Positions 12,910 to 54,297 of a stretch of 64,000 nt of DNA are shown here, in pieces. Every line of letters begins with the position of its first letter. The stretch's first letter is position 1. The notes under the pieces are model-generated. The model searched no databases and had not been told where the DNA came from. It was given only the letters and a program-made list of their open reading frames with translations. The stretch spans positions 7,572 to 71,571 of the forward strand of contig JBLNEW010000012.1 of the NCBI GenBank assembly GCA_050263095.1, given 5' to 3'. The stretch comes from Deltaproteobacteria bacterium (GTDB lineage Bacteria > Desulfobacterota > Deferrimicrobia > Deferrimicrobiales > Deferrimicrobiaceae). The position numbers and the translations under genes were made by a program.

Positions 12910-14019
12910 TTACGGAAGCAGCTCCAGGAACCTGTCGAACAGGCGCGGCTCGAATTCCTTCCCCCTGCCCTCTTTCATTATGGAGATCGTCGTTTCCCTG
13001 TCCAGGCTTTTCCTGTAGGGACGATAGGTGCGAAGCGCGTCGTAAACGTCGGCGATCTGGGTCATGTACGAAGCGGGCTGCAAGGCCCCTTCGAACCGGA
13101 CGGCCGGATACCCCGACCGGTCGTATTTGACGTGGTGCTCGAAGGCGACGATCATCGGCAGGTCCGAACCGCAATCAAGCTTCCTGAGTATTTTCGCGCC
13201 GGTTGCGGGGTGCTCCGCCATCCTTTCGAATTCGCCGGCATCCAGCCTGCCCGGCTTGTTTAGTATTCCCGCCGGGATCGTCTCCTTCCCTACGTCGTGC
13301 AGCAGCGCGGCCATGCCGAGCTCCTGGACCTGGGGCTCGGAAAAACCGAGGTGGATCGCCTGCGCCACGACTATTACGCAGACGTTCAGGGAATGCGTCA
13401 CCGTGTAGTCGTCGTGCGCCTGCAGGCGCATCAGGCGGTCGATGAGCATCCCCTCCTGGCGAAGCCCCTTCATCACGGCCGCGACCAGATCGCGCCCTTC
13501 GGAGACGCGGGCCCCCGCCCCTTCCCCCGCGAGCGACGTCAGAAGGCTCTTCAAAACCTCGGCGGCTCCCTGCAGGACGTGAGACCTCATGACGGGCGTC
13601 AGTCCGGAAGGGATATTCCCCCCCTCCGCGATCTCCTGGATCCGGCCGCAGGTTATATGCTCCCATCGCATTTCCGCGGCCCCTTCCTTGCCCCCTCCGA
13701 CGTAATATACGAACCGCTTCAATTCACCGAAAGTGATCCCCTCGCCGAACGAGACCTTCTCTATCCCCCTTTCCTGCATCCTGCGGATAAGTTTGACCAG
13801 GGTTGGGGAAATTCCCAGGAATGGGAACTCGTCAACGATGGCGTGATCGCCCATGAAGCCCATGTGCAGGATCTTGAGCCTTTCCGTTTCATCCTTTATT
13901 CGCTGGTGGAGGCGCGTCAGAAGTTCCTGGACGCGCTGATGCGTATCCGGATAGACGGACACCGCCTGGACGGCCAGGGCAAGGTCGGATACCACGCCGA
14001 AAAGTTCCTGCTTCTTCAT
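12910..14019 (-). CDS. HD-GYP domain c-di-GMP phosphodiesterase (no receiver domain)
   Basis: LLHDVGK and HHVKYDRSGYP motifs. ATG 14019 has a GGAGGG RBS and overlaps the stop of the upstream gene (ATGA). Confidence 0.8.
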   Translation of the reverse strand: MKKQELFGVVSDLALAVQAVSVYPDTHQRVQELLTRLHQRIKDETERLKILHMGFMGDHAIVDEFPFLGISPTLVKLIRRMQERGIEKVSFGEGITFGELKRFVYYVGGGKEGAAEMRWEHITCGRIQEIAEGGNIPSGLTPVMRSHVLQGAAEVLKSLLTSLAGEGAGARVSEGRDLVAAVMKGLRQEGMLIDRLMRLQAHDDYTVTHSLNVCVIVVAQAIHLGFSEPQVQELGMAALLHDVGKETIPAGILNKPGRLDAGEFERMAEHPATGAKILRKLDCGSDLPMIVAFEHHVKYDRSGYPAVRFEGALQPASYMTQIADVYDALRTYRPYRKSLDRETTISIMKEGRGKEFEPRLFDRFLELLP

Positions 14020-16049
14020 CGGCCCTCCGTGGATTTGAGCAGGGCCGCGCAATGTTCGCGAACCGCCGCCCTGCGCGACTCCTTTCCCCTGTGCAGGAAG
14101 CCGGTCGCCTCCGCGCCGCCTATGCGGAAAATCGCTGTCGCCGCGTCCACCCTCAGGGAAACTTCCTTGGATGACGCGAATATCGACTCGGCCAGGAGGA
14201 TCCTTCCAAGCGAGGGAACCGCCTCCGGGACCTTGAGTTTCCCCAGCGCAAGCACCGCCTCCCGCTTCACCCGGAGGTCCGTGTTGTCGAGCGTCCGCAC
14301 CAGCTCCGGCCCTGCTCCGCGGTCGCCGATCTCGCCCAGCAGGAAGCACAGGTTGCGGACGAAATACCAGCGGGAATGGGAAAGCCTTTCCAGGATAGCG
14401 GGAACCGCAATGCTCCCCATGCGGACTCCCAGGGACAGCAGGAGCTTTCGCTTGCCCGCTTCCGGCTCCGTCAGGAGGCGGTCAAGCACGGCGGCGATCG
14501 CATCCTCGCCGAATGCGGCAAAAAAGGCGGGAATCCTTTCTTCGTCCTCCCGGGTCATCGCCCTGGAAAGGAACAGGTCCACGATATGGGCGAAATCCGT
14601 CCCCTGTATCGTCCTTCGCACCTCGTCCCGCCCCGCCCCAGGGGCATTTTCGCTTATCGAGGACAGCGCGACGAGCACGGTTTCGAGCAGGGCGAACTCC
14701 ATCCGCGAGATGATGTTGGGAAGGTATTTCCGGATATCCTCGAGCAGCTGCAGGAACTCCGCATCGTTTTTCTCGCGGGCCAGAAGCTCCAGCAGCACGA
14801 GGACCGCCTTCCTGTGCCTGGCCTCCTCCCGGAAATGTTCGAGCAGCGTCGGATCCGGTTCCGCGGAAGGCACGGCGCCGGCTTGCATGCCCGCGCCGGC
14901 CGACAGCGCCTCCATGAAACGTGAATGGTCCTCCCCGGCATATGCCTTTTCCGACCTGGCCAGAAGTAGCTTCTCGACGGCTTCCCAGGTCTTGACTGCG
15001 TAATACTCCTTTGCCCGAAGGCTTTCCCGGGCGCGCTCCTTGAGCCGCGGAAGAAGGGAGCCGTGCACGTTGCGCTCCGCGGCGATGATTTCGAAAATCC
15101 TCCGAAGCCGTTTCCCTCCCTTGTCTTCGGCGGACAGGAGGCTGGCGGTAAGGTCGAGAAAATCGTCATCGGTGTAATCCGCCGACAGGGAGCGGGCGAA
15201 CGAAACCGGAAGGGAAAGTTCGGCCGCGTCCGGGATGTCTTCTCCGGGACCATCCTGCCAGGCGGTTCCCTCATCCAGGAAATGAAGGACTTCCTGCCTG
15301 CGGTCCTCGGGAAGGGACCGCATAGTCTCACCCAGGCGGCGGAACATGCGGCGAAGGACCTCGGGTGACACGGCGTCTTCTTGCTGCTGCGTCCCGGGCG
15401 GGCCCGGGCATTTATGCGCGCAGGCCCGGGCGTGCCTGAGTATGGCGGGAATAAGCTCCGGCGACCCCGAGAGCTCCTCCACTACCTTTCTCTCTCCTCC
15501 CTCGTCCGCGATGTTCGCGGTCAGAAGCATTCGCCACAACGCATCCCCGCGGCCGGAAAGCTCGACGCATTCTTCAGGGTTCATGATCCGCCGCGAAAGA
15601 ACCTCTTTGTAGTTGTAGGGATAAAGGAATATTCCCGGCAGCCGCTCCCGCTGCAGAAAAGCATCGGGGGATTCGTCCGACTTGCCCGACCTCGAATCGT
15701 GCAGGCTGCGGAAAAACGAGAGAAGCCCTTCGGCGGTGGCGTCCCCGCTGAAACCGAGCGTAGCTACCTGATTGATATAAAGATTCTCCGCGAAGGGGGA
15801 AATCAATGCATGTCCTTCGCCCAGGAAGGCATCCCGGTACAGGACACGGTCCCGCGCGATTCCGAACAGAAGCCGGTTTCCGGGCTCCTGCGCGATCCGC
15901 CCCATGAGCGTTGCGTGGATCTGCTTTATGCGCTCGGCAAGGAAAGGATGCCCGGCCTGGTAAAGGCCGGTCCAATGGCATACGCGGGCCAGGTCCAGGA
16001 GAAGCAGTTCCACCTCGGGGAAAACGCTCTCGTGCTGCTCCACTGCCAT
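14016..16049 (-). CDS. HEAT/PBS-lyase repeat protein, about 677 aa
   Basis: C-terminal HEAT-like repeats ([54 protein letters not shown]). Start taken at MAVEQ (GGAGGG 8 nt upstream) rather than the longer ORF. Translationally coupled to the HD-GYP gene. Confidence 0.5.
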
Positions 16050-16503
16050 TCGGGGATCCCTCCGAAAGCGGGCGATATCCCGACAGACACGTCTTCCGGA
16101 GACCTTTATCGCCATAAGACATCAAGATCTTTACCGGAAAATGGTGTCCGTCCTCCGCCCTTCCCCCTGCCTCCCCTATCGGAGATCACACGGCCGCCGC
16201 CAAGTCGATATCCGTCCGCATCCGCGAATCTTCTTGCCTTGGCGGGGGCCGGGTGGTAAAGTGTTTCCAGCCAGAAAAAACACAAGACGCAATCCTCTCC
16301 CCAACGGTCCTTTCGCGGATGCGGGCCGGATGCCCGATAAGGGCATGTGCATCGCTTCCCCGAACGGCTTCCCCTTCGGAAGATCGGACAAGGCTTCAAC
16401 GCCTCCTCCACGGGTTGTGCTTGGTGAACATCCGGCACCGCGCCGCCTGTCCGCGTCATGCGGAAGGCCCCGCGAAATACATCCTTCGAGGAGAAGAGAA
16501 AAA

Positions 16504-21099: not shown

Positions 21100-23544
21100 T
21101 CAGTGGCTTTTCCCGACCCGGGGAAAAAGCCACCCGGCGGCGAGGTAAAGGAGCCCGCCGGCCGCGACGGTCCCTCGAAATCCGATCCACATCGCACCGG
21201 CCGACGCAAGCGATGCCCCCGCCACCGAGAAAAAGCCATTTATTCCCCATGCATAGGGGATCGCGGGCGCGGTCGATCCGGTCAGTCGCGAGAGTCCCGC
21301 CGGGAACGGCATCCCCATGAGAAACGCCGCCGGTCCCAGGGAAACGATGAATATCGCCGTCCTCGCGGTTTCCCCCAGCGGCAGGAGCGCCCCCGCCGAA
21401 AGGGAAAGGAACAGGAACCCGGCAAGCGCAAGGAGCGCGATACCGGGAAAGACGCGTCCCTTCATGGTCTTTTCCGACCCCCATCTCCCGGAAATAGCGC
21501 TGCCGAGCCCCGAGAAAAACGCGAATCCGCCGATGGCGGCGGTGGAGGCCCGGATGGCGTCGCCCAGAAGGAGAATCCCGATTTTCAGGAAGGTCAGCTC
21601 GATCAGCATGTACGCAAGGCCCAGCGCCGAAAAATAGGCCGCAAGGCTTGCCCCGCCCGCCTTGTCCGGCAGGCGCACGGCCGCAAGCGGAGCAAGCAGG
21701 CAGACCGAGGCCAGCGCAAGAGAAACGGCGAGGGAAGCAAGCAGGAAGACAACCCCCCATTCGACGAACGGAACCCACTGGTTTCCAAGCAGCCTGCGGA
21801 ACTCGGGCAACGAGCCGAGCCGCAGGAAGCGGTGGAAATACGGGGAATCGTCGACCACGGGCGAAAGATCGAACAGTCTCCCGCCGGGCCCGCCTGGACG
21901 GCCGGCGAGCACGCCGGCAACGGCCGTTCGAAGCCCCTTTTCCGCCGCTCCATCCCCGGCTTCCTGTCCGTTCACGGGGGGCCACACAATCGAAAACCCC
22001 GTCTCCCCGCAGAAACGTTCCAGGCGCCTCATCTCCTCTCGGCCAAAGGGGAGCCGTCTCGCGATGATTGCGAACGACCCCCAGCCCCGGACCATGACCA
22101 CCTTCGCCGTTGCCGGGGCGCGGTCGTCCCTTTCCAGCTCCAAACGCAGCGTGGCGAGGATCTTGACGCTTTCCCTGGGCGGGGCCTTGAGCCACCCCGA
22201 GAATGCGATCACGCCGTTTTCCGAAAGGCGTGACATCGCCGCCCGAATCCCCTCCCGCGTCAGGAGGTACGTCTCGCCGGTCGCATGAATCCCGAGAGAC
22301 GAATACGTCGCCGACGATATCTCCGAAACTTCGATCAGGTCGAACCTGCCCCCATCGCGCGCCAGGAAATTCCGCGCGCCCTCCGTCCGGATCTCCGCCG
22401 GCATGGCGGCAGGCAATCCCGCGGAGAACCGGAACAGATCCGACCGCACAAGCGCCGCCAGTTCCGCGGCGGGCTCCACGACGGTGACCGACGATGCGCC
22501 GTTTCTTGCGGCTGTAAGGATCCCCTCGGTCCCCCTGAGCCCGAACTGAAGCACCGCGGGACGGTCAACCATCCGGTACGCCGCCACCAGGGGAAATCCG
22601 TCGAGGTAGGCGGGAGGGCTCTCTCCGCCGTCCTGCGGGACGACGCCGCGGGCCTCGCCGTCGAGGAACAGCGCCGCCTGCGGGGGAATTTCTCCCGCGA
22701 ACCGGAAGCTCAGCCCCGGGGCGACATGTATGCCGCCCGCGAAAAGCGCACGGTAATCCCCGGAGGGGCCGAAGCGGTATGCGATGGTCTTCGCGCCCGG
22801 AAGCCGCGCGGAGACCGCAAGGTCCTTGTATGGGGACAGCGCCAGTTCGGCCGGCGGCAGGAAGAGCAGCAGCGACGAGGCCGCAAGGACCGCCAGGCGC
22901 ACCAAGTACAGCCGTCCTCCGGGCGATCCCGCCGCAAAAAGGGACGCCGCAAGGGCGATCGCAAGCGGCGCGCGCATGAGCGATTCCGTTTCCAGCAGGG
23001 AAAAGGCCGGGAGGGCGATGACGGCTCCGGCGGCGGACCCCGCGAACGCGGCAGCGTAGACGGGACCCGGCTCTTCGAACCGGAAAGCAAACGGGATCGC
23101 GATGGCTCCACCGGCCAGGAAAAATGGAACCGCAAGAAGAAGGAAGAACCATCCGAATCCGATCCACGCGGAAGGCTCCCACATAAGGAGGAACGGATCG
23201 AAGGAGATCGCCTGCGAGGCCCGGAAAGCGAGGTCGAACGACGGGGCGGCCAGGAGCGCCAGCCATGCGAAGACCGCCGCCGGGGCATTTTCGATTCTCC
23301 GGCGGAAAAGGTGCAGAGCGAGCCCGGCGGCCCCGAACCCCAGCATGGCCTGGGAAACGATAAGCGGCACGAAGTGCGGCCAGAAACGGAAAGACAAAAG
23401 CCTTATGAGGAAGATCTCGTCGGCCAGCGCGGCCGCCGACAGGAGGAAGACGGCCGCAAGGACCGCCTCGCGCCCGGGGCGGTCAGTGGCCGAGGAGACG
23501 GACGAAGGCGACCGGGAGGACGTTTCGCTGGGAGACCGAGCCAT
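21100..23544 (-). CDS. Spermidine-synthase-like (polyamine aminopropyltransferase fold) fused polytopic membrane protein
   Basis: Many TM helices flank a central methyltransferase/spermine-synthase-like region (DLIEVSEI...GIHATGETYLLTREG...ENGVIAF). The start is uncertain (about 60 nt overlap with pcm). Confidence 0.4.
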   Translation of the reverse strand: MARSPSETSSRSPSSVSSATDRPGREAVLAAVFLLSAAALADEIFLIRLLSFRFWPHFVPLIVSQAMLGFGAAGLALHLFRRRIENAPAAVFAWLALLAAPSFDLAFRASQAISFDPFLLMWEPSAWIGFGWFFLLLAVPFFLAGGAIAIPFAFRFEEPGPVYAAAFAGSAAGAVIALPAFSLLETESLMRAPLAIALAASLFAAGSPGGRLYLVRLAVLAASSLLLFLPPAELALSPYKDLAVSARLPGAKTIAYRFGPSGDYRALFAGGIHVAPGLSFRFAGEIPPQAALFLDGEARGVVPQDGGESPPAYLDGFPLVAAYRMVDRPAVLQFGLRGTEGILTAARNGASSVTVVEPAAELAALVRSDLFRFSAGLPAAMPAEIRTEGARNFLARDGGRFDLIEVSEISSATYSSLGIHATGETYLLTREGIRAAMSRLSENGVIAFSGWLKAPPRESVKILATLRLELERDDRAPATAKVVMVRGWGSFAIIARRLPFGREEMRRLERFCGETGFSIVWPPVNGQEAGDGAAEKGLRTAVAGVLAGRPGGPGGRLFDLSPVVDDSPYFHRFLRLGSLPEFRRLLGNQWVPFVEWGVVFLLASLAVSLALASVCLLAPLAAVRLPDKAGGASLAAYFSALGLAYMLIELTFLKIGILLLGDAIRASTAAIGGFAFFSGLGSAISGRWGSEKTMKGRVFPGIALLALAGFLFLSLSAGALLPLGETARTAIFIVSLGPAAFLMGMPFPAGLSRLTGSTAPAIPYAWGINGFFSVAGASLASAGAMWIGFRGTVAAGGLLYLAAGWLFPRVGKSH

Positions 23545-27335: not shown

Positions 27336-28109
27336 CTAACCGGATGGCTTCTCCCTCTCATGAAGTTTCATGACGCGGAAAGCCTCGGCGTATTCGGGCG
27401 CCCTGGGGACTCCGGGGTCGGCGCATCCGGCGCCATTCCCTTGGACCCTGGCCCTCTCCGCTTCGTTCCTTGCCCATTCGATAATTCTCGCGGCGGGATC
27501 CCACCCTTCCAGCTGGCTGGCATGCGCCTTCAGGGCCTCTATCTTCCTGTCGATCGTGCCGGAAATGTCGATCCAGGTGTTGGGCGACGGAGTCGACCCT
27601 ATGTACACCGCACGGACCTTGTGCGGCAGCCCCTCCTCGGGCCACAACAGCTCCATCTCGGCGGCGGGGAACACGGCCTCGAGCGCGGCCGCGGCCGCTG
27701 CGCGATGGTCAGGGTGGTTGATGTAGCTGTCGTCGAAGAACCACGCTTGCGGATCTCCGCATACCACGACCTCCGGGCGGAACCGGCGGATCTCGCGCAC
27801 CAGCTCGCGGCGCAATTCCAGCGTGGGCAGCAGGGCGCAGTCGTCGTGGCGCAGGAACACCACTTCCTTGACGCCCAGGATCCCGGCCGAGGCCCTCTCC
27901 TCTTCCTCGCGCGTAATCGCAAGCGTTTCGCGCGTAAATGTGCGGTCGTGCGTGCCCGCGTTGCCGCTCGTCAACACGACGAGCGCGATCTCGCACCCGG
28001 CCTTCGCCCATCCCGCCATGGTCCCGGCGACCGTAAACTCGGCGTCGTCCGGGTGGGCGAAAATCGCCATCGCCGACCCGGGGACGTAGCCGGCGTCGTA
28101 CCTGGGCAT
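27336..28109 (-). CDS. PIG-L/LmbE family deacetylase
   Basis: AHPDDAE zinc-binding motif and HxDH. GGAGGAG RBS 7 nt before ATG 28109. Confidence 0.65.
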   Translation of the reverse strand: MPRYDAGYVPGSAMAIFAHPDDAEFTVAGTMAGWAKAGCEIALVVLTSGNAGTHDRTFTRETLAITREEEERASAGILGVKEVVFLRHDDCALLPTLELRRELVREIRRFRPEVVVCGDPQAWFFDDSYINHPDHRAAAAAALEAVFPAAEMELLWPEEGLPHKVRAVYIGSTPSPNTWIDISGTIDRKIEALKAHASQLEGWDPAARIIEWARNEAERARVQGNGAGCADPGVPRAPEYAEAFRVMKLHEREKPSG

Positions 28110-28308
28110 CGCATCTCTCCTCCGGCTTTCAGATGCCGGAACGGGCGGCATGGATTTAATCCCTTCCGAATCCAATCGTTAAGAAATATCCCAATAAAAT
28201 AATAAAGTTATATTGCAGGCCTTCCGATAATTCCCTCAAGTGGGATCCATGGAAAGAGGCCCGGGGAATCCCATGGCCGGACATTTTTTGCCCTTGCGGA
28301 GCTAACGT

Positions 28309-30888
28309 ATGGATATAAAAGGGGTATTTCTGGCCCCAGTCAAGAAGTTGAAATCCCGCATCAACGGAAGGCTGGACTCGGAGCACGAGCAATCCCTAAT
28401 CCGGCTCGCCTTGACGCTGATCTGCTTCCTGTATTTCCTCTCGGCTTTCATCGCCAACCGGCACGAACAGGGCGGAGTCGGCTGGGCCTTCTACTCTGCC
28501 GGTTGTTACATAATATTTTCCCTGGTGGTTTTCGCGGCCATCGTCATCCGGCCGGGGATATCGCCGATACGCAGGATCGCAGGGATGCTGGGGGACATCG
28601 GCATAACCACGTACTGCCTTTACGTAGGAGGCGCCAATACCGCCCCCATTTACATCCTGTATCTTTGGGTGACTATAGGCAACGGCTTCAGGTACGGCAA
28701 TAAATACCTGTTCGCGAGCACTTTGGCCAGCGCCGCCGGATTCACGTTCGTGATCTGGGCGACCAGCTACTGGCGCGACCAGCTTCCCCTTTCGATCGGA
28801 CTTTTCGTGGGGCTGATCATCCTGCCGCTGTACATCTCGACGCTGATCCGAAAGCTGACGGACGCGATGAAGAAGCTCAAGGACGCGACGGCCCGCGCGG
28901 AAGACGCGAACCACGCGAAGAGCCAGTTCCTGGCCAACATGTCCCATGAGCTTCGCACCCCGTTGAACGGAATAATGGGAATGGCGGAGCTGCTTCAAGA
29001 CACGCGCCTCTCCGACGAGCAGAAGAACTTCACCGACACGATCTACGATTCGACCCGCACCATGCTGTCCCTGGTGAACGACGTCCTGGACATCTCCAGG
29101 ATCGAGGCGGGGAAGATCGTGATAGAAAAAACGGATTTCGATCTGCACGACCTGCTGAAAGAAACGGCGTCCATGCTGCATCACGCCGCCAACGCAAAGG
29201 GACTGCAGCTTTCCACGATCATGCCCCCCAACGTTCCGTTCCTGTTGCAGGGCGATCCGCTGCACATACGCCAGGTCGTCCTCAACCTTCTGTCGAACGC
29301 GGTCAAGTTCACTGAATCGGGAGAGGTCACGCTGCGCGTCCAGCGCGTCCTCGAGACGCCCGACAAGGTTTCGCTGAAGTTCGAGGTGTCCGATACCGGC
29401 ATCGGCATGACCGAGGAGCAAAGGGAGAAGATCTTCGAGCGGTTCGCGCAGGCCGACGGCTCCATCACGCGCCGTTACGGCGGGACCGGGCTCGGGACCA
29501 CCATCTCCAAGCAGTTGATCGAACTTATGGGCGGGTCCATCGGCGTCGAGAGCGCCGCCGGCGTCGGAAGCACCTTCTGGTTCACGCTGTCATTCGACAA
29601 GCAGGCCGCGGCGGATGCGCCCCTCGCCCCGGACAAGGCGACCGATTGCAGGTTCCTGGTCGTCTCATCCGATCCGGATACGATGGACGCCTTGTGCGCG
29701 CACATGAAATCCTGGCACATAGAGACCGATGCGATCCCCCGCGCGGCGATGGCGTTCTCGAAGCTGGTCTCGGCGTTCGACCAGGGCAACCCCTATCACG
29801 CGGTCATAGTCGTCGAGCAGGACCTCGACATGGGGCTGTCCGAATTCGCCACCGTAGTGAAAACCGTCAAGAAGATCGCCAAATCCCGCCTGATCGTCGT
29901 TTGCCGCCCCTTCGCCGTTCCCAGCCTGGACGACCTCGCCCGGAAGGGGTATTGCGTCGCCCTGGAGAGCCCTCTCGACAAGACGATGCTCTTCAACGCC
30001 ATTCACTTCGTCAGGCCGGACACCCCCGACAAGGAAGACCTGGCGTTTCTCGCCAACCGCTACAGGCAGAAGAAGTCCGGCGCGGACAGGCTGCGCCTCC
30101 TCGTGGCCGAGGACAACGCGGTCAACCAGAAAGTCATCAGCCTCATATTGGAAAAGGCCGGGCACAGCGTCCGTCTCGTCGAAAACGGGGAGCTTGCCCT
30201 GGACGCGCTGCAGAACGAGAAATTCGACCTGGCCCTCCTGGATCTCAACATGCCCGTAATGGGAGGAATCGAAGCCGCAAAAATGTACCAGTTCATGTCG
30301 CTGAACCGCCCGCGGGTACCGCTGGTCGCGCTTACGGCCGATGCTACGCCCGAGACCCGGAAAAAATGCGAAGAAGCTAAATTCAACGCGTACGTCACGA
30401 AGCCTTTCGAGTCGAAAAACCTGCTCGAGGTCATTAACAGGCTGGCTCCCAAGGCGGCCGACAGGCGCGAAAGCGCGCATTTCCATGCCCTTTCCGAGGG
30501 CCAGGAGAAAAAACCGGCAGGTCTCGATGAACCCCTCGATTTCTCCGTCATACGGGATCTTGTCAGCCTCGGGGCCGACGGGAATTTCATCCGCAACATG
30601 ACCCGGCTGTTCATGGAAGGGACTGAAGAGAAGCTCCGGCAGATGAGGCATGCCTTGACGACGCGGAACTCGGAGGAATTCAGGAGGCTCAACCACGCCC
30701 TGAAAGGTTCGGCGGGCCAGATCGGGGCGATGCCCCTGTCGTCCCTGTGCGGCGAATATGCGCTCGCCGGCCACGATGAGTTCGTCCGTTCGGGGAAGGA
30801 GATGATCGACAGGTTGAACGCGGAGTTCCTCAAGGTCGGCGAGGCCCTCAGCGGCCAGGCCGAAGAGCTTAAAAAAACCAATCCTTGA
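28309..30888 (+). CDS. rpfC: RpfC-like hybrid sensor histidine kinase (membrane sensor, HisKA, HATPase, REC, HPt)
   Basis: Multi-TM N-terminus beginning ...DSEHEQSLIRL. H-box SHELRTPLN. G1/G2 boxes. Receiver LLVAEDNAVNQKVI...DLALLDLNMP. C-terminal HPt HALKGSAG. Convergent with an rpfF homologue. Confidence 0.7.
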   Translation: MDIKGVFLAPVKKLKSRINGRLDSEHEQSLIRLALTLICFLYFLSAFIANRHEQGGVGWAFYSAGCYIIFSLVVFAAIVIRPGISPIRRIAGMLGDIGITTYCLYVGGANTAPIYILYLWVTIGNGFRYGNKYLFASTLASAAGFTFVIWATSYWRDQLPLSIGLFVGLIILPLYISTLIRKLTDAMKKLKDATARAEDANHAKSQFLANMSHELRTPLNGIMGMAELLQDTRLSDEQKNFTDTIYDSTRTMLSLVNDVLDISRIEAGKIVIEKTDFDLHDLLKETASMLHHAANAKGLQLSTIMPPNVPFLLQGDPLHIRQVVLNLLSNAVKFTESGEVTLRVQRVLETPDKVSLKFEVSDTGIGMTEEQREKIFERFAQADGSITRRYGGTGLGTTISKQLIELMGGSIGVESAAGVGSTFWFTLSFDKQAAADAPLAPDKATDCRFLVVSSDPDTMDALCAHMKSWHIETDAIPRAAMAFSKLVSAFDQGNPYHAVIVVEQDLDMGLSEFATVVKTVKKIAKSRLIVVCRPFAVPSLDDLARKGYCVALESPLDKTMLFNAIHFVRPDTPDKEDLAFLANRYRQKKSGADRLRLLVAEDNAVNQKVISLILEKAGHSVRLVENGELALDALQNEKFDLALLDLNMPVMGGIEAAKMYQFMSLNRPRVPLVALTADATPETRKKCEEAKFNAYVTKPFESKNLLEVINRLAPKAADRRESAHFHALSEGQEKKPAGLDEPLDFSVIRDLVSLGADGNFIRNMTRLFMEGTEEKLRQMRHALTTRNSEEFRRLNHALKGSAGQIGAMPLSSLCGEYALAGHDEFVRSGKEMIDRLNAEFLKVGEALSGQAEELKKTNP

Positions 30889-30891
30889 ATT

Positions 30892-31797
30892 CTAGGTACG
30901 GATTCCTTCGTCGGCGATGAGCCGGGGGCCGCCGCTCTCCTTGGCGACCTGCGCGCGCACGAGCCTTTCCATGATTCTCAGATCGGAATCGTCCAGGCTT
31001 AGGGCGGTGTCCACCCAGATATCGGCGGTTCTCTCCAATTCTTCCTTGGCGACGCGGAACACCTCCTGGCGGACCTTGCTGATCCCCTGCCTTGCTTTTA
31101 TCCTCCGGGAATGGTTCTTTATGAACTCGTATACCGCTTTCTCCCCGCCGCCGTCCTCCGAAAGGATGTCCACCACGCCTTTTTGGTGCAACTCCTCGGC
31201 CGTGTATACGTTTCCGCTGGTCATTATCTCCTCTACCTGCTTCATTCCAACCCTTCTTGCCAGGAAGTGATAAGCCCCCATGCCGGGAAACAGGTTGAAC
31301 AGTATTTCCGGCAGGCCGAACCTCGCGCGCTTCTCTGCGATCATGATCGAACAGCACAAGGCCGCCTCGAATCCCCCTCCGAGGGCATCGCCCTGGACAA
31401 GGGAAATCGTGGTCATCGGAAGATTGTAATTGGCCGACTGGATGTAGACGTTGTCGATGCAAAGCTGCGCATATCTCCTGAGCCCCTCGCGGTCCCGCTC
31501 CGATATCATTTTCTTGAAAAGAAATATGTCTCCCCCGTAACTGAATATGGCGGGATGTTTGGACGCGAGAACGGTGTAAAGGATAGGAAGGGAACCCGAC
31601 TTCGAAAGGTGATCCCTGCCGTATTCCTCGATATTGTCGTAGCAGCGCTTCAGGCTCTCGAGCAAGGGTTCGTTGAAGCAGGACCTCCCCTCGGGATCGA
31701 GGAACGTCCAAAGGACTTTGTGGGAGGGATCGAATCTTAATTTGAGCTGCTTCGCCGACTCGAACACCGGGGGGAATCGCTGTACGGAAACCTGCAT
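30892..31797 (-). CDS. rpfF: DSF-family signal synthase RpfF homologue (crotonase superfamily)
   Basis: Long near-identical stretches to Xanthomonas RpfF as I recall it (LVQGDALGGGFEAAL, GLPEILFNLFPGMGAY, IWVDTA, MERLVRAQ). Both catalytic Glu positions are present. Confidence 0.75.
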   Translation of the reverse strand: MQVSVQRFPPVFESAKQLKLRFDPSHKVLWTFLDPEGRSCFNEPLLESLKRCYDNIEEYGRDHLSKSGSLPILYTVLASKHPAIFSYGGDIFLFKKMISERDREGLRRYAQLCIDNVYIQSANYNLPMTTISLVQGDALGGGFEAALCCSIMIAEKRARFGLPEILFNLFPGMGAYHFLARRVGMKQVEEIMTSGNVYTAEELHQKGVVDILSEDGGGEKAVYEFIKNHSRRIKARQGISKVRQEVFRVAKEELERTADIWVDTALSLDDSDLRIMERLVRAQVAKESGGPRLIADEGIRT

Positions 31798-32094
31798 GGT
31801 GTCTCCTTTTATCGGTTTTCCCGCGTCAATATCGGCATGACGAAAAATTTGTCCATATTGGGAAAATTCAAAACCTTATGCCGCGTCCGTCCCTCCACGC
31901 CGGAAAGGAAAAACAATCGCATTCGGTTACACTTATATATGGCCGAATAAAATTCCGCTGAATCCGATTCAGTACTTTGACCCCCCGGTCGTGCATAAAA
32001 TAATATAGGCGGATCGAAAAATTGCAAATCTTATTTTTTGCTTGGTGTTTGAAGCGTCGAATGAAAGTAAAAAATTAAATGCATTTTCACGCGA
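31798..32094. promoter_or_regulatory. AT-rich (about 35% GC) 300-bp regulatory region upstream of rpfF, with a 15-bp palindrome
   Basis: Strong compositional drop relative to the 65% GC background. CTGAATCcGATTCAG palindrome at 31959-31973. The ATTCGG...CCGAAT inverted repeat at 31921-31948 listed in the findings was not verified. Several A/T tracts. Confidence 0.5.
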
Positions 32095-33144
32095 TCATCC
32101 GCGCCGCCTGTGGTCGTCGGTCAGTGGAAAAGTTTTCCCATAAACGATCTGTCGTACCCCATCGAGGAAATCGAGCGGGAATCCCAGCTCGATCCTGCTC
32201 GCTTCGTCCAGGCGCTTAATCTGCTCCGGCGCCAGGCGGAACTCGAGCACGCCCAGGTTGTCCCTGAGCTGGGAAACCTTCGTCGCGCCGACTATCGGGA
32301 TCATCACGCCGCGCTCGCGCTGCCTCACCCAGGACATGGCCACCTGCGATGCGCTGCGGCCCGTCTCGGCGGCTACCGCCGCGACCTCATCCGCGATCCG
32401 GAAGTTCCGTTCCGTCAGGAATGCGTCACCCCACTGCGCGGCGGTCGAAAAACGCGTCTCTTTCGGACGGTCCTTGCCGGCCCTGTATTTGCCGGTAAGG
32501 ACGCCGCCCCCTAACGTCCCCCAAGGCGTCACCGCGAGGTCCAGCGCCTCCGCCATCGGCAGCAGGTCCCGCTCCGGGGTGCGCTCGATGAGGCTGTAAG
32601 GAATCTGCAGCCCGACGAAAGGCGTCCATCCCTTCAGGTCCGCGAGCGTGTTCGCCCGCGCAACGGCCCACGCGGGCGTGTCGGAGATGCCGGCATACAG
32701 GATTTTCCCCGAGCGCACCGCGTCGTCCAGGGCGCGCATCAGCTCGTCCGCGGGAGTCATGGGGTCCCACGCGTGGACCCAGTAGAGGTCGACGTAATCG
32801 GTGCGGAGCCGCGCCAGGCTGGCTTCCAGGGACTGCGCCAGGTTCTTGCGATGATTCCCGCCGGCGTTGGGGTCGTCGGGGCTCATGTTCAGGGTGTACT
32901 TCGTGGCGATCACGAACCGCTCGCGATCCGAAGCCACGAACTCCCCGACGAACCTTTCGCTGGTGCCGTTCGTGTAGTAGTTGGCGGTGTCGATGAAGTT
33001 CCCGCCCGCTTCGGCGTATGCCTCGAATATCCTGCGGCTCTCCTCCCTGGACGCGCCCCACCCCCACTCTTCCCCGAAGGTCATCGCTCCAAGGCAGATT
33101 TCCGACACCCTGAGGCCGCTTCTTCCCATCAGCTTGTACCGCAT
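32095..33144 (-). CDS. Aldo/keto reductase
   Basis: AKR motifs (IDTANYY, GISD). 349 aa. Confidence 0.8.
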   Translation of the reverse strand: MRYKLMGRSGLRVSEICLGAMTFGEEWGWGASREESRRIFEAYAEAGGNFIDTANYYTNGTSERFVGEFVASDRERFVIATKYTLNMSPDDPNAGGNHRKNLAQSLEASLARLRTDYVDLYWVHAWDPMTPADELMRALDDAVRSGKILYAGISDTPAWAVARANTLADLKGWTPFVGLQIPYSLIERTPERDLLPMAEALDLAVTPWGTLGGGVLTGKYRAGKDRPKETRFSTAAQWGDAFLTERNFRIADEVAAVAAETGRSASQVAMSWVRQRERGVMIPIVGATKVSQLRDNLGVLEFRLAPEQIKRLDEASRIELGFPLDFLDGVRQIVYGKTFPLTDDHRRRG

Positions 33145-38936: not shown

Positions 38937-39488
38937 TTGCGGAGGAAACGGGCCTTGGCGAAGAGAATTCTCCCTCACCCCCCGAAAAGCTGGCGGGCGG
39001 ATGCCGTGCAGGCGATCAAATCCTTCGATCCCTCGATACAGGCCGAGGCCGCGCGCATCCTGAAACGACGCGAAACCATGACGGCGCTGGCCTACATGAT
39101 GGAGGCCGCCGGCGGATCGTTCAACCCCGGCAATTTCTACCACGCCCTGAGGATCTGCTCCGACTGCGCCACGCCGCGGCGCCCGCCATTCGCCAGCCGC
39201 AAGAGGGCCGGGGAAATAGCGTCCGCGATAGGCACGCTTCTCGAGTCGGAGGAGATCTCGTTTTTCCTCAAGGAGACCGTCGAGGGCCGGACGGCCAGGC
39301 GCCAGCTGGACAAGGCGAAAACTTTCGCCGAGGAATTCACGAAGATCCGCAAGGGCGCAAGGATCAGGTTCGAGCAGCAGGATTGTTTCCTGCGGCTCTA
39401 CAAGCTTTTTCATTCCATATACAAGCGTCCCGTGATCAAGGCGGTCAGGAGCTGGATGAAGGCCGCCTTCCCGCGCAAGACGATTTGA
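38937..39488 (+). CDS. Hypothetical protein
   Basis: 183-aa basic protein. No recognisable domain. Confidence 0.3.
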   Translation: MRRKRALAKRILPHPPKSWRADAVQAIKSFDPSIQAEAARILKRRETMTALAYMMEAAGGSFNPGNFYHALRICSDCATPRRPPFASRKRAGEIASAIGTLLESEEISFFLKETVEGRTARRQLDKAKTFAEEFTKIRKGARIRFEQQDCFLRLYKLFHSIYKRPVIKAVRSWMKAAFPRKTI

Positions 39489-40164: not shown

Positions 40165-42177
40165 GTGCAGCGCCCTACGCGAACCCGCTCCATGCCTGTC
40201 TTCGCCACCGGCGCGCTCCTCACGCTGCTCATGGGCGCCCTGTGCCTGTGGCCTCCGCCCCTGGCCGTATTCCTGGACGGGAAGATCTACGACTCGTTCA
40301 TGCGCTCCACACGCCGTCCCGCGAACACGGGATCCGTGACGATCGTGGACCTGGACGAGGCCAGCCTCGAAAAGATAGGACAGTGGCCGTGGCCGCGCTA
40401 TCGCGTTGCCCGTCTCCTCTTGAAGATCCGTGAAGCGGGAGCCGCGGCGGTCGGGCTCGACATGGTCTTCGCCGAGCCGGACCGGACGTCCCTCAACTCC
40501 CTTTCAGGCGAGATCCGCCGCGACCTCGGCGCCGGGATGGCCCTTGCGGGGATACCGCCCGACGCGCTGGACACGGACCGCGCCCTTGCCCAGGCACTCT
40601 CCGGCGTTCCCGCCGTTCTCGGGTACCAGTTCGACTTCGGCTCCCCCCGCGGGCGGTCTTGCGTCCTGCACCCGCTTCGGGCCGCGATCCGCTCGGACGG
40701 AGGCGAGGACGAATCCATGGGACTGTTCGACGCTCCGGGAGTAGTCTGCAACCTGCCCGTTCTTTCCCGCGCGGCGGGCTCGTCGGGCTTTTTCAACGTA
40801 ACGCCCGACTCCGACGGCATGTTGCGCCGCGTTCCGCTCGTTATCCGCCACAAGGGCGCGCTCTACCCGAGCCTTGCCCTGGCGGTCTACCTGCGCGCCC
40901 GCGGCGGCGACGCCGTGCTGGAGGCGGGTCCTGAGGGGATCGAGGCTCTGCGGATTTCCGGAAGGAGCATCCCCCTGGACAGGCGGGGGAACCTGGTGGT
41001 GAACTACCGCGGCCGGCGAAAGGTATTCACCCACGTCTCCGCGGCTTCCGTCCTGGACGGGACCGCGGATCCCGCAGCGCTCTCGGGCAAGATCGCGATC
41101 CTGGGAACGACGGCCGCGGGGCTCCACGAGATCAGGACCACCCCGCTTGAGGCCGCCCAGCCGGGCGCCGAGATACACGCCACGGTCATCGACAACCTTC
41201 TGGCGGAGGACCCGATCGCGCAGCCCCGGTGGGCGCGGGGACTCCAGATCTTTCTCGTCGTAGTCCCCGGCTTCCTGATGACGGCCCTCCTGGCGCGGGC
41301 GCGCGCCTTATGGGGACTGGTCGCCGTCGTTCCCGCCACCGGCGGAGTCTGGCTCGGCGCATGGTGGCTCCTCGCCGGCCACCGTGTCTTCCTGTCGCCG
41401 CTCATGCCGGCGGCTACTCTCGCGCTCGTTTTCTCCCTTCTCACTTCGCTGCGCTACCATCAGGCCGACCGGGAAATGAGGGAGCGGACCCGGAAGCTTG
41501 CCCTCACCCAGGACGCGGTCATCCAGAGCCTCGCCGCGCTGGCGGAGACCCGCCACCACGAGACCGGCGGCCACATCCAGCGGACCCGGCGCTACATGCG
41601 GATACTCGCGATGCGCCTGCGGAACCACCCCCGCTTCAGCGGATATATGGACGACGCGGCGGTGGACCTGCTTTTCCGCCTCGCCCCCCTGCACGATATC
41701 GGGAAGGTGGGAGTTCGCGACCACATCCTTCTCAAGCCCTCGCCTCTGACCCCGGAGGAGTTCGAGGAGATGAAGAAACACACCGTTTACGGGTCCGAGA
41801 CCATAAGGCAGGCGCAGAACTTTTTAGGCGAGGATTCGTTCCTCCAGGTGGCCGACGAGATCGCGCTGAGCCATCACGAGAGGTGGGACGGGACCGGCTA
41901 CCCCCGCGGCCTGCGGGAGGACGAGATCCCCATCCCGGGGCGGCTCATGTCGGTGGCGGACGCCTACGACGCCATCATAAGCGCCCGCGGATACAAGCCG
42001 GCCATGCCGCACGAGGAGGCGGTGCGCATACTTCGCGACGAGAGCGGAACGCACTTCGACCCGGACGTCGTCGATGCCTTCCTCGATACGCAGGAAGAAT
42101 TCCGGCAGGTCGCCGACCGCTTCGGAGGCGAGGTGGTGGAGCCGGAGCCGCCCGCCGGCTTCAGGGGACGCTACTGA
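40165..42177 (+). CDS. CHASE2 sensor domain, HD-GYP c-di-GMP phosphodiesterase
   Basis: N-terminal CHASE2 (IVDLDEASL, GQWPWPR). TM helices. C-terminal HD-GYP (LHDIGKVGV, HHERWDGTGYP). GTG start directly after the OmpA stop. Confidence 0.7.
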   Translation: MQRPTRTRSMPVFATGALLTLLMGALCLWPPPLAVFLDGKIYDSFMRSTRRPANTGSVTIVDLDEASLEKIGQWPWPRYRVARLLLKIREAGAAAVGLDMVFAEPDRTSLNSLSGEIRRDLGAGMALAGIPPDALDTDRALAQALSGVPAVLGYQFDFGSPRGRSCVLHPLRAAIRSDGGEDESMGLFDAPGVVCNLPVLSRAAGSSGFFNVTPDSDGMLRRVPLVIRHKGALYPSLALAVYLRARGGDAVLEAGPEGIEALRISGRSIPLDRRGNLVVNYRGRRKVFTHVSAASVLDGTADPAALSGKIAILGTTAAGLHEIRTTPLEAAQPGAEIHATVIDNLLAEDPIAQPRWARGLQIFLVVVPGFLMTALLARARALWGLVAVVPATGGVWLGAWWLLAGHRVFLSPLMPAATLALVFSLLTSLRYHQADREMRERTRKLALTQDAVIQSLAALAETRHHETGGHIQRTRRYMRILAMRLRNHPRFSGYMDDAAVDLLFRLAPLHDIGKVGVRDHILLKPSPLTPEEFEEMKKHTVYGSETIRQAQNFLGEDSFLQVADEIALSHHERWDGTGYPRGLREDEIPIPGRLMSVADAYDAIISARGYKPAMPHEEAVRILRDESGTHFDPDVVDAFLDTQEEFRQVADRFGGEVVEPEPPAGFRGRY

Positions 42178-52968: not shown

Positions 52969-54297
52969 GTGGATTCGTTTTCATCCCTGATAACAAAAGC
53001 GGCACTGCTGTTCCTGGGCATCGCCCTGTTCGCCGAGTACCTGTTCCGGAGACGCAAATTACTGGCCGAGTCCGGAAAGAACAGGTCCAAACAGCAAAAA
53101 CTCATTGAATTTTCGAAGGAATTGAAATTACTTAAGAAGAACCTTGCCCGAAAGACCGAAATCGCCGACCAGATTCCCCTTATCATCAAGAAGCTGACTG
53201 AGAATCTTAGTCAAAGCTCCCTTCCCGCAATGGCCGTCCGGTCCGCCAAGGAGCTGTTCCATGCGGAGAAGGCGGGATTCTTCACCCCGGTCAACGGCAC
53301 CGCCGAATATACCCTGGAGGTCGGCGCCGGCTTCCCCCCCGATTGGCAGGGCAAGATAAGAATCGACGCCGACGAGGGAATCCTGGGCATGGCGCTCCAG
53401 AAGAAGGTGGTGGTCTCCCGGATGGATCCGCTCTCATTCGCCGGCAGAAGATCGTCCAGCCGGTCGCTCGAGCAGCTTGGGGCAATCCCCGACTTCGTAG
53501 CGCCGGTTTTCGGCGTTTCCGGAACGATAGGCGCCCTTGTCATCGCCGGTTGTCCGTTCCCCCTCGAAGAGGAGCGGAAATACATGTCGATGCTCGCCGA
53601 TCTGCTCTCCACCGCCATGCAGAAGGCGACCCTTATCGATTCGAGCATATCCAGGTCCTGGGTCGATCACCTGACCGGCGTATCCAACAGGCTGCATTTC
53701 CTGCAGAGGTTCGAGAGCGAAGTCCGGCGCTCCGAGAACTATCGGCAAGCGCTGGCCCTGTTCATGTTCGACATAGACGAGTTCAAAAAGATCAACGACA
53801 CGTACGGACATGCCGCAGGAGACGTCGTGCTGAAGAAAATGGTGGAAATCGTCAGGCAGAACACCCGGAGCTCCGACCTTATCGGGCGATTCGGGGGCGA
53901 CGAGTTCATGGTGCTGATGATGTCTTCCAACGCGGAACAGTCGCGCCATTACGCCGAGAAGCTGCGTGAGATCATCTCCGCGACGGATATCCGGATTCCG
54001 GGACAGGACGCTCCCGTCCGCCTGACGATCAGCGGCGGATTGGCGATGTGGCCGGTCGACGGGCAGTCGACCACCGAATTGATGCAGTGCGCCGATGTCG
54101 CCCTCTACGAAGCGAAACGCAAAGGAAGGAACAACATCGTTCTCATCCAATCCCTGGGCCTTGACGGCGCGATCCTCCACGGGCAGGGATCGGAGCCGGC
54201 GAAGCAGGTCCCGGCAGCCGGCGATAATGCGGCAGGCATCGAGGAAAAGGATGGCGTCCTGGAGCTGTGCGACGACGAATGGGAATCGCTGGCATGA
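52969..54297 (+). CDS. Membrane-anchored GAF-GGDEF diguanylate cyclase
   Basis: N-terminal TM. GAF-like region. GGDEF active site RFGGDEF with RxxD I-site. The 5' part has markedly lower GC. Confidence 0.75.
   Translation: MDSFSSLITKAALLFLGIALFAEYLFRRRKLLAESGKNRSKQQKLIEFSKELKLLKKNLARKTEIADQIPLIIKKLTENLSQSSLPAMAVRSAKELFHAEKAGFFTPVNGTAEYTLEVGAGFPPDWQGKIRIDADEGILGMALQKKVVVSRMDPLSFAGRRSSSRSLEQLGAIPDFVAPVFGVSGTIGALVIAGCPFPLEEERKYMSMLADLLSTAMQKATLIDSSISRSWVDHLTGVSNRLHFLQRFESEVRRSENYRQALALFMFDIDEFKKINDTYGHAAGDVVLKKMVEIVRQNTRSSDLIGRFGGDEFMVLMMSSNAEQSRHYAEKLREIISATDIRIPGQDAPVRLTISGGLAMWPVDGQSTTELMQCADVALYEAKRKGRNNIVLIQSLGLDGAILHGQGSEPAKQVPAAGDNAAGIEEKDGVLELCDDEWESLA

Follow-up and report, generated by a model that had tools for sequence, protein, structure and literature searches.

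A convergent rpfF/rpfC-like gene pair in a Deferrimicrobiaceae genome, probably encoding a DSF-family synthase and its sensor

The stretch of DNA analysed here, referred to as the window, comprises 64,000 nucleotides of a metagenome-assembled genome (MAG) from the family Deferrimicrobiaceae (assembly GCA_050263095.1, contig JBLNEW010000012.1, positions 7,572 to 71,571 of the forward strand), and carries two genes whose products resemble RpfF and RpfC, the synthase and the sensor kinase in the system that Xanthomonas campestris pv. campestris (Xcc) uses for diffusible signal factor (DSF). The rpfF-like gene (30892..31797, minus strand) encodes a 301-residue crotonase-fold homologue of DSF synthases, and the rpfC-like gene (28309..30888, plus strand) an 859-residue hybrid sensor histidine kinase. 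The open reading frame (ORF) map agrees with the first-pass annotation on both ORFs, their coordinates, strands and sizes; the genes are convergent and their stop codons lie 3 bp apart. A terminator-like hairpin was sought between the two stop codons, and none fits. We consider it quite probable that the pair constitutes the synthase and the sensor of a quorum-sensing system that uses a DSF-family signal, i.e., a cis-2-unsaturated fatty acid.

Both proteins have exact counterparts at NCBI, where they belong to a MAG labelled "Deltaproteobacteria bacterium" and are named "crotonase/enoyl-CoA hydratase family protein" (MGE5698666.1, RpfF-like) and "ATP-binding protein" (MGE5698665.1, the kinase). 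In IMG, the cluster of the RpfF-like protein bears the name "DSF synthase", and that of the kinase is called "two-component system sensor histidine kinase RpfC". Members of the same clusters at 90% identity come from Candidatus Deferrimicrobiaceae; the phylum, Candidatus Deferrimicrobiota, is the former MBNT15 (PMC9386147).

The crotonase and the hybrid kinase

According to Pfam, the 301-residue protein has the fold of the crotonase superfamily (ECH_1, 7.5e-26; ECH_2, 2.2e-11). The four top matches in the PDB are all of the RpfF type (7zq7, 1.4e-55; 3m6m, which is Xcc RpfF, 5.3e-53; 6dgn, which we take to be Cronobacter RpfF, 3.6e-43; and 5fus, 1.3e-42), and the best metabolic enoyl-CoA hydratase in the same search is found at 5e-15. 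Among the NCBIfam models, NF006452 ranks first with 345 bits (its cutoff is 177), followed by the RpfF equivalog model NF053515, and the best metabolic model reaches 73 bits. Judging from the sequences that it captures, NF006452 can be taken as the broad DSF-synthase family (PRK08788), where the reference RpfF proteins score 415 (3m6m), 397 (6dgn) and 375 bits (Arenimonas). Both searches thus bear out the original assignment to RpfF rather than to the generic hydratases.

In a 14-sequence alignment that includes the Xcc and 6dgn proteins, the catalytic glutamates Glu144 and Glu164 are invariant and correspond to Glu141 and Glu161 in Xcc RpfF. They reside in the motifs GGGFEAAL and GLPEILF, both present as first described, and delimit an active-site segment (31306..31368, minus strand) that runs from the Glu144 codon at 31366-31368 to the Glu164 codon at 31306-31308. 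The long identical blocks that the first-pass annotation noted in common with Xanthomonas RpfF do exist in the active-site region; overall, however, the identity is only 39% to Xcc RpfF, and it is 33% to the 6dgn protein. The combined evidence supports the 301-residue protein as a homologue of the RpfF-family DSF synthases, for which signal production is predicted.

In the kinase, Pfam recognizes HisKA (residues 203–268), HATPase_c (315–429), Response_reg (598–709, 1.1e-21) and Hpt (764–817, 9.5e-09), and assigns no family to residues 1–200 or 440–590. HisKA and HATPase_c make up the kinase core (28915..29595, this and all following kinase features on the plus strand) with the phospho-acceptor His213; the true receiver domain (30100..30435) contains the phospho-acceptor Asp645 and Lys698, and the HPt domain (30598..30759) the phospho-acceptor His796. 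These four residues and Asp602 are invariant in the RpfC alignments. Residues 1–185 (28309..28863) form a membrane input domain of the RpfC type, composed of a short N-terminal segment followed by five predicted membrane helices.

Only three short matches came from a word-indexed search that used just the N-terminal part of the kinase; it was replaced by an exhaustive HMMER search with residues 1–200 in which the homologues were clustered at 50% identity. RpfC-type input domains were found in 2,196 clusters, 1,562 of them at E ≤1e-10, and mostly in hybrid kinases of 830–870 residues. A hidden Markov model (HMM) built exclusively from relatives of the window protein matches the rpfF-adjacent kinases of Luteimonas sp. 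J29, Luteimonas soli and Arenimonas malthae with E-values from 1e-52 to 1e-58. With these Xanthomonadales RpfCs (Arenimonas, Luteimonas) the window kinase is colinear over its full length at 37–38% identity, and the RpfC alignment features the conserved membrane-domain blocks SPxRR, GNGFRYG and LPxY.

In Xcc RpfC, DSF binds to a 22-residue N-terminal sensor (Cai et al. 2017, PMC5391125), where residues 15–22 read RADSEHAQ and Arg15, Asp17, Ser18, Glu19 and Gln22 are essential for DSF sensing (PMC5391125). All five essential residues are retained in the window kinase with the same spacing, as Arg21, Asp23, Ser24, Glu25 and Gln28 of the sequence RLDSEHEQ (residues 21–28, 28369..28392), whose reading in the first-pass annotation is correct; together with the HMM match, they show that the kinase has the RpfC sensor-domain signature. 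The motif R-x-D-[ST]-E-x-x-Q occurs in 106 of the 150 top input-domain homologues, and Glu25 is invariant in 95 sequences, in line with the report that a glutamate matching Xcc Glu19 is conserved in all RpfC-type input domains (PMC6536496).

The AlphaFold2 model of the kinase, obtained with a 95-sequence alignment, has a mean pLDDT of 87.8, with values above 90 in the input domain. Five long helices are predicted (residues 25–49, 54–80, 86–129, 131–151 and 159–180), the last of which continues straight into the helix of DHp, a domain for dimerization and histidine phosphotransfer, while the DSEHEQ motif caps the first helix, starting at residue 25. This pattern is consistent with the input domain of the Pseudomonas aeruginosa kinase PA1396, for which five transmembrane (TM) helices and an outside N-terminus have been determined experimentally (PMC6536496). 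Simple hydropathy alone can be read as either five or six segments. The six-segment alternative, which would place the N-terminus inside the cell, is disfavoured by the model, in which residues 86–129 form a single long helix.

We regard the assignment of the 859-residue protein as an RpfC-type sensor as supported, and predict from its sequence that it binds DSF with stimulated autophosphorylation as the outcome. As a separate observation, a seven-residue insertion corresponding to one heptad (residues ~186–192, ~28864-28884) lies in the helix between TM helix 5 and the H-box; of nine sequences aligned, only the window kinase and a Deferrimicrobiaceae homologue (locus L004) have it.

Conserved pairing and the pseudo-receiver domain

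A scan in which each species was represented by a single genome revealed RpfF relatives in at least 574 species. Eighty loci were kept, representing Alpha-, Beta-, Gamma-, Zeta- and Deltaproteobacteria, Campylobacterales, Opitutaceae and one Bacteroidota isolate, and were combined with five loci of closer homologues into a comparison of 84 non-redundant loci by offline domain mapping. An RpfC-type kinase gene follows rpfF in convergent orientation in about 54 of the 84, with four more loci cut by contig ends and three in another orientation, so that the Xanthomonas-like convergence proposed for the window is indeed the commonest layout. Twelve of the 84 loci instead have a gene for a ~670-residue GGDEF protein on the rpfF strand and no RpfC, similar to the arrangement with RpfR in Burkholderia.

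In the automatic tally, the next gene of the rpfC operon encodes a REC-HD-GYP protein in 20 loci (Beta- and Gammaproteobacteria, including Xanthomonadales) and a REC-GGDEF protein of ~715–750 residues in 16 loci (mostly Alphaproteobacteria). Over-extended ORFs or an intervening gene misled the tally at L008, L023, L037, L068 and L070, which were reassigned by eye to those with a linked regulator. After this correction, a REC-HD-GYP or REC-GGDEF gene is linked to the convergent rpfC in roughly 45 of the 54 cases. About eight convergent loci have no linked regulator (L001, L004, L005, L007, L009, L011, L038 and L060), and the window shares this minority "orphan" layout. In another Deferrimicrobiaceae genome, GCA_036504035.1, where RpfF is 60% identical to the window protein, genes for an Hpt and a REC-GGDEF protein are located divergently beside rpfC. 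The pair itself is kept at RpfF identities of 86%, 60% and 51% despite differing flanking genes, and because it is retained in otherwise different neighbourhoods, the two genes can be expected to function together.

Several of the proteins and loci retrieved deviate from the common architecture. Two or three tandem RpfC-type input domains precede a single kinase core in P0125 (1257 residues), P0126-P0131 (~1010–1060 residues) and L040:10881-13949. At L037 (13824-15541), rpfC and the regulator gene are separated by extra input-domain ORFs, an arrangement reminiscent of rpfH in Xanthomonas. In a Campylobacterales MAG (L031:1882-3714), a 610-residue protein convergent with rpfF has the RpfC-type input domain fused directly to GGDEF, and would thus represent a one-component sensor that couples DSF to cyclic di-GMP (c-di-GMP) without a phosphorelay.

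The HisKA-HATPase-REC-HPt relay and the input domain agree with the RpfC architecture assigned in the first-pass annotation; the domain count, however, is not that of the Xcc protein, as there is an additional receiver-like domain at residues 448–568 (29650..30012), in the part of the region between the catalytic and ATP-binding (CA) domain and REC where Pfam has no match. In a profile–profile comparison of two disjoint sets, 53 insert sequences versus 47 REC domains of stand-alone regulators, the insert matches REC with a probability of 96.8% and an E-value of 2.5e-10; the alignment covers 106 columns, with 12% identity. The AlphaFold2 model displays a complete (βα)5 receiver fold for the same residues (pLDDT 94–97). 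The residues required for phosphorylation chemistry have been lost, with Ser453 and Ser454 in place of the acidic pair, Val502 in place of the aspartate at the end of strand 3, and Ser554 in place of the lysine. Because the segment has a receiver fold devoid of phospho-acceptor chemistry, we refer to it as a pseudo-receiver. Within the pseudo-receiver family at large, the aspartate in the acceptor position is kept in about half of the members, and the acidic pair and the lysine are generally lost.

Among 60 rpfF-linked RpfC homologues, the spacing between CA and REC is 143–189 residues in 56 and 37–44 residues in four, the latter being three Xanthomonadales proteins and one from a betaproteobacterial MAG, in which the pseudo-receiver is absent. 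The window kinase thus has the architecture of most homologues, and it is the much-studied RpfC of Xanthomonas that is unusual.

Comparison with known systems and proposed mechanism

The similarities to the Rpf/DSF system in Xcc are extensive: rpfF and rpfC converge, both catalytic glutamates and the five essential sensor residues are present, the membrane domain is modelled with five helices, and the HisKA-HATPase-REC-HPt relay retains all three phospho-acceptors. Unlike in Xcc, where RpfG is the HD-GYP regulator and RpfB an acyl-CoA ligase, no rpfG, rpfH or rpfB is located near the pair in the window. The sequences have also diverged (39% identity for RpfF and ~37–38% for RpfC, the latter measured against Arenimonas and Luteimonas), the window kinase has ~150 extra residues between CA and REC in addition to the one-heptad insertion between TM5 and DHp, and the host is a Deferrimicrobiota MAG instead of a plant-pathogenic gammaproteobacterium. 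A closer architectural match is offered by the long-form loci of environmental Beta-, Gamma- and Alphaproteobacteria, such as those of Thiobacillus (L041), Methylophaga (L059 and L069) and Hyphomicrobiales (L064), in which a kinase of ~840–880 residues with a pseudo-receiver is likewise encoded convergently to rpfF. These loci have a co-operonic REC-HD-GYP gene (Beta- and Gammaproteobacteria) or REC-GGDEF gene (Alphaproteobacteria), which the window lacks.

P. aeruginosa is not known to have a cognate RpfF. Its DSF-sensing kinase PA1396 has a homologous input domain with five TM helices and the conserved glutamate in the N-terminal segment, but differs from the window kinase in that the domain list in a figure legend (PMC6536496) includes HisKA, HATPase_c and REC but no HPt. 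In the RpfF-RpfR systems of Burkholderia and Cronobacter (the latter described in PMC4698668), which use the Burkholderia type of DSF (BDSF), the synthase is likewise a member of NF006452, and the window protein is 33% identical to the 6dgn RpfF as given above. There, the receptor is the soluble RpfR (PAS-GGDEF-EAL), and in the 12 loci of this kind among the 84 no RpfC-type kinase is found beside rpfF.

Outside Proteobacteria, an rpf cluster is present in Leptospirillum ferriphilum and L. ferrooxidans (Nitrospirota), and DSF-family compounds have been detected in culture (PMC8357829). As predicted for the window, this is a DSF system of an iron-cycling bacterium beyond Proteobacteria, and it demonstrates that such homologues can be functional (PMC8357829). 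The Leptospirillum rpfFCG genes are unidirectional and include rpfG, and rpfC in L. ferriphilum is split in two, unlike the convergent pair with an intact rpfC and no rpfG in the window. The novelty of the pair is lower than the first-pass annotation implied, considering the at least 574 species with RpfF relatives and the names already assigned in IMG to both proteins. For DSF systems beyond Proteobacteria, experimental documentation exists in Leptospirillum (PMC8357829). The host phylum is new for a DSF system; the kind of system is widespread and already recognized.

The homology, the conserved catalytic, sensor and relay residues, the domain folds and the gene pairing described above are shown by the analysis. 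From these, we infer the signal chemistry, the binding of a ligand and the identity of the output as follows. The two glutamates in the RpfF homologue would dehydrate a 3-hydroxyacyl-ACP (acyl carrier protein) intermediate from fatty-acid synthesis and cleave the thioester, thereby releasing a diffusible cis-2-enoic acid that would build up with cell density. The RpfC homologue would detect the signal on the outer side of the inner membrane through the R-x-D-S-E-H-x-Q motif and the five-helix domain, and binding would raise autophosphorylation of His213, followed by phosphate transfer to Asp645 and further to His796. From the HPt domain, the phosphate would be passed to a response regulator whose gene lies at another site of the genome. 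The output is probably c-di-GMP turnover and surface or biofilm behaviour, c-di-GMP being likely because the linked partner in related genomes is always a c-di-GMP enzyme, either REC-HD-GYP or REC-GGDEF.

A number of points weigh against this interpretation. For this organism and its phylum it relies on homology, and the identity to characterized proteins amounts to only 33–39% for RpfF and 37–38% for RpfC. The window crotonase does not pass NF053515, the equivalog model for Xanthomonas RpfF (221 bits against a cutoff of 550), and by this measure is not filed as a Xanthomonas-type RpfF equivalog. Of the proteins scanned, only Xcc RpfF passes (574 bits); the Arenimonas protein (373 bits), from a Xanthomonadales genome with rpfC and rpfG beside rpfF, and the 6dgn protein (182 bits) both fail, and because they do, we attach no weight to this failure as regards function. 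In the sensor motif, Glu27 occupies the position of Ala21 in Xcc RpfC, where an A21D replacement halved the DSF response (PMC5391125); we count this against the assignment, although glutamate is the family norm at this position. In addition, PA1396 senses via TM helices IV and V, and its N-terminal segment is dispensable (PMC6536496), which implies that the exact binding site may differ between members of the family.

The partners expected from Xcc are also absent from the neighbourhood. The entire window was annotated with Pfam, and the flanks on the source contig (ENA ERZ27292721, k141_369592, 92,774 bp) were checked for 10 kb past each edge, without any REC-HD-GYP, REC-GGDEF or stand-alone response regulator being found in either the window or the flanks. 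The annotation bears out the initial statement that no REC-HD-GYP RpfG is adjacent: rpfG is not part of the rpfC operon, and neither rpfG nor rpfH is nearby. The window ORFs scanned with Pfam contain no match to rpfB or to an AMP-binding acyl-CoA ligase. On the source contig, neither RpfG nor RpfB is thus encoded within ~40 kb of the pair. Furthermore, the genome paper on the phylum mentions neither quorum sensing nor DSF, and no signalling system was found reported for Deferrimicrobiota (MBNT15), a phylum mentioned in 20 papers.

With a regulator gene missing from the window, its flanks and ~8 of the 54 related loci, one may ask whether a true RpfF/RpfC pair could operate without signalling through c-di-GMP. 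The kinase would then feed another regulator, for example a transcription factor, or chiefly sequester RpfF through a receiver-fold domain, making the locus mainly a self-limiting producer of the signal. The extra pseudo-receiver could provide a protein-docking surface for this purpose, and a regulatory interaction of RpfC with RpfF is known from the literature, with sequestration reported for Xcc RpfC; PDB entry 3m6m presumably contains RpfF together with the RpfC receiver domain. We nevertheless find this distinctly improbable, since the intact relay residues His213, Asp645 and His796 argue for a downstream phospho-acceptor, and the linked partners in relatives, including the Hpt and REC-GGDEF genes beside rpfC in GCA_036504035.1, all point to c-di-GMP enzymes.

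RpfF enzymes have a broad acyl-ACP thioesterase activity. The crotonase could therefore be mainly an enzyme of lipid metabolism or membrane homeostasis (an acyl-ACP thioesterase/dehydratase), in which case the kinase would sense free fatty acids or the state of the membrane instead of a signal dedicated to cell density. A link between RpfF and membrane integrity is stated in the title of PMC8659556, and the RpfC-type input domain is widespread (the 2,196 clusters above), often without an adjacent rpfF, as for PA1396. Set against this, the tight convergent pairing of synthase and sensor is kept across phyla, as is characteristic of a signal and its receptor, the sensor residues for the DSF response are conserved, and DSF-family molecules have been detected in Leptospirillum (PMC8357829), for which reasons we deem a primarily metabolic role very unlikely. 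That both genes are generic, i.e., a metabolic enoyl-CoA hydratase beside an unrelated hybrid histidine kinase, as the NCBI names and the missed equivalog cutoff might suggest, is hardly credible in view of the E-values, which differ by 40 orders of magnitude for RpfF structures and metabolic crotonases, the scores for NF006452 and the next metabolic model (345 versus 73 bits), the RpfC-specific input domain with its motif, and the pairing in dozens of genomes.

As an extension of the synthase–sensor assignment, the long form with a pseudo-receiver may be the ancestral and dominant RpfC, from which the Xanthomonas protein would be a reduced derivative; where no regulator is linked, the pseudo-receiver, and not the true receiver, might dock and sequester RpfF. 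We give this joint proposal a small but appreciable chance. If true, the true receiver and HPt would remain available to relay phosphate to an unlinked regulator, and an uncultured iron-reducing phylum would possess fatty-acid quorum sensing with an output unlike the RpfG paradigm.

If the pair functions as a DSF-family synthase and sensor, cell–cell signalling of the DSF type would extend to the uncultured candidate phylum Deferrimicrobiota (MBNT15), whose members, from peat and sediments, are predicted to be facultative anaerobes that reduce iron. The pair also adds to the indications that RpfF and RpfC occur together commonly among environmental bacteria and are no speciality of plant pathogens. 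A modest point of more general relevance is that most rpfF-linked RpfCs carry a pseudo-receiver that the model Xanthomonas protein lacks, and that, depending on the clade, the same sensor is connected to one of two c-di-GMP outputs, HD-GYP or GGDEF. Current understanding is not overturned by these results, and automated pipelines already annotate the proteins correctly.

Base composition, flanking regions and other genes in the window

The rpfF upstream intergenic region (31798..32094, minus strand) is AT-rich, 297 bp long, and contains several sigma-70-like hexamer pairs; it harbours most of the eight promoter-like sites found in 27900-32300, where 1.6 are expected. An AGGAG ribosome-binding site is positioned 7 nt ahead of the rpfF ATG. 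Based on these features, the region is a putative rpfF promoter. The neighbour of rpfF beyond it is an aldo-keto reductase gene. On the other side, 133 bp (28176..28308, plus strand) between a divergent PIG-L deacetylase gene and rpfC make up the presumed rpfC promoter, and because the upstream gene is divergent, rpfC is monocistronic in the window. In L001-L003, an msrA (PMSR) gene separates rpfC from the PIG-L gene (L001:13490-14357; RpfF 86% identical), which is not the case in the window.

The first-pass annotation placed the pair in a stretch of locally lower GC content. Numerically this is true: the lowest-GC kilobase of the window is 31001-32000 (0.531), which holds rpfF and its upstream region, and the kilobase 28001-29000 at the start of rpfC has 0.567, compared with ~0.63 for the window overall. 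The effect is modest, however, and the genes as a whole (rpfF 0.561, rpfC 0.597) fall inside the range of 0.543–0.715 spanned by the other window genes, the dip being largely owed to the AT-rich intergenic region upstream of rpfF. Horizontal acquisition was considered and rejected, since the decrease is slight and falls in part on intergenic sequence, equally low values occur in other genes of native appearance, and the pair is found in conserved synteny in the relative with an 86%-identical RpfF. There is no real evidence for a recent foreign origin of the pair, and the low GC content lends it no real support.

Two HD-GYP proteins, at 12910-14019 and 40165-42177, exist in the window as initially noted, neither of them with a REC domain. 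Both were considered as stand-ins for RpfG and rejected. The former has HD_5 only and apparently shares an operon with a HEAT-repeat protein, and the latter has a CHASE2 sensor of its own in addition to HD_5. The first of these proteins has 369 residues, of which the initial 200 match no Pfam family, and its gene overlaps that of the upstream 699-residue HEAT-repeat protein by 4 bp, probably as one operon (12910-16115, minus strand). A second, unrelated module combining c-di-GMP and two-component signalling occurs at 52969-56969 (plus strand), where the gene for a 442-residue GGDEF protein, whose N-terminal 230 residues have no assignment, overlaps the start of that for a dCache-HAMP-PAS hybrid kinase, which has a REC domain at its C-terminus.

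Pfam matches neither of two further ORFs whose coding statistics are good, an 814-residue one at 21100-23544 (minus strand), with a counterpart that likewise lacks a Pfam match at the same position in L001, and a 183-residue one at 38937-39488 (plus strand). Finally, the first ORF of the window (9-2954, plus strand) encodes the C-terminal part of a 1,668-residue protein with two short-chain dehydrogenase modules (compare L092:14358-20885), beside which lies a protein of more than 893 residues with zinc-dependent alcohol dehydrogenase/enoyl-reductase and ECH_1 domains; these two proteins might be malonyl-CoA reductase-like and propionyl-CoA synthase-like.

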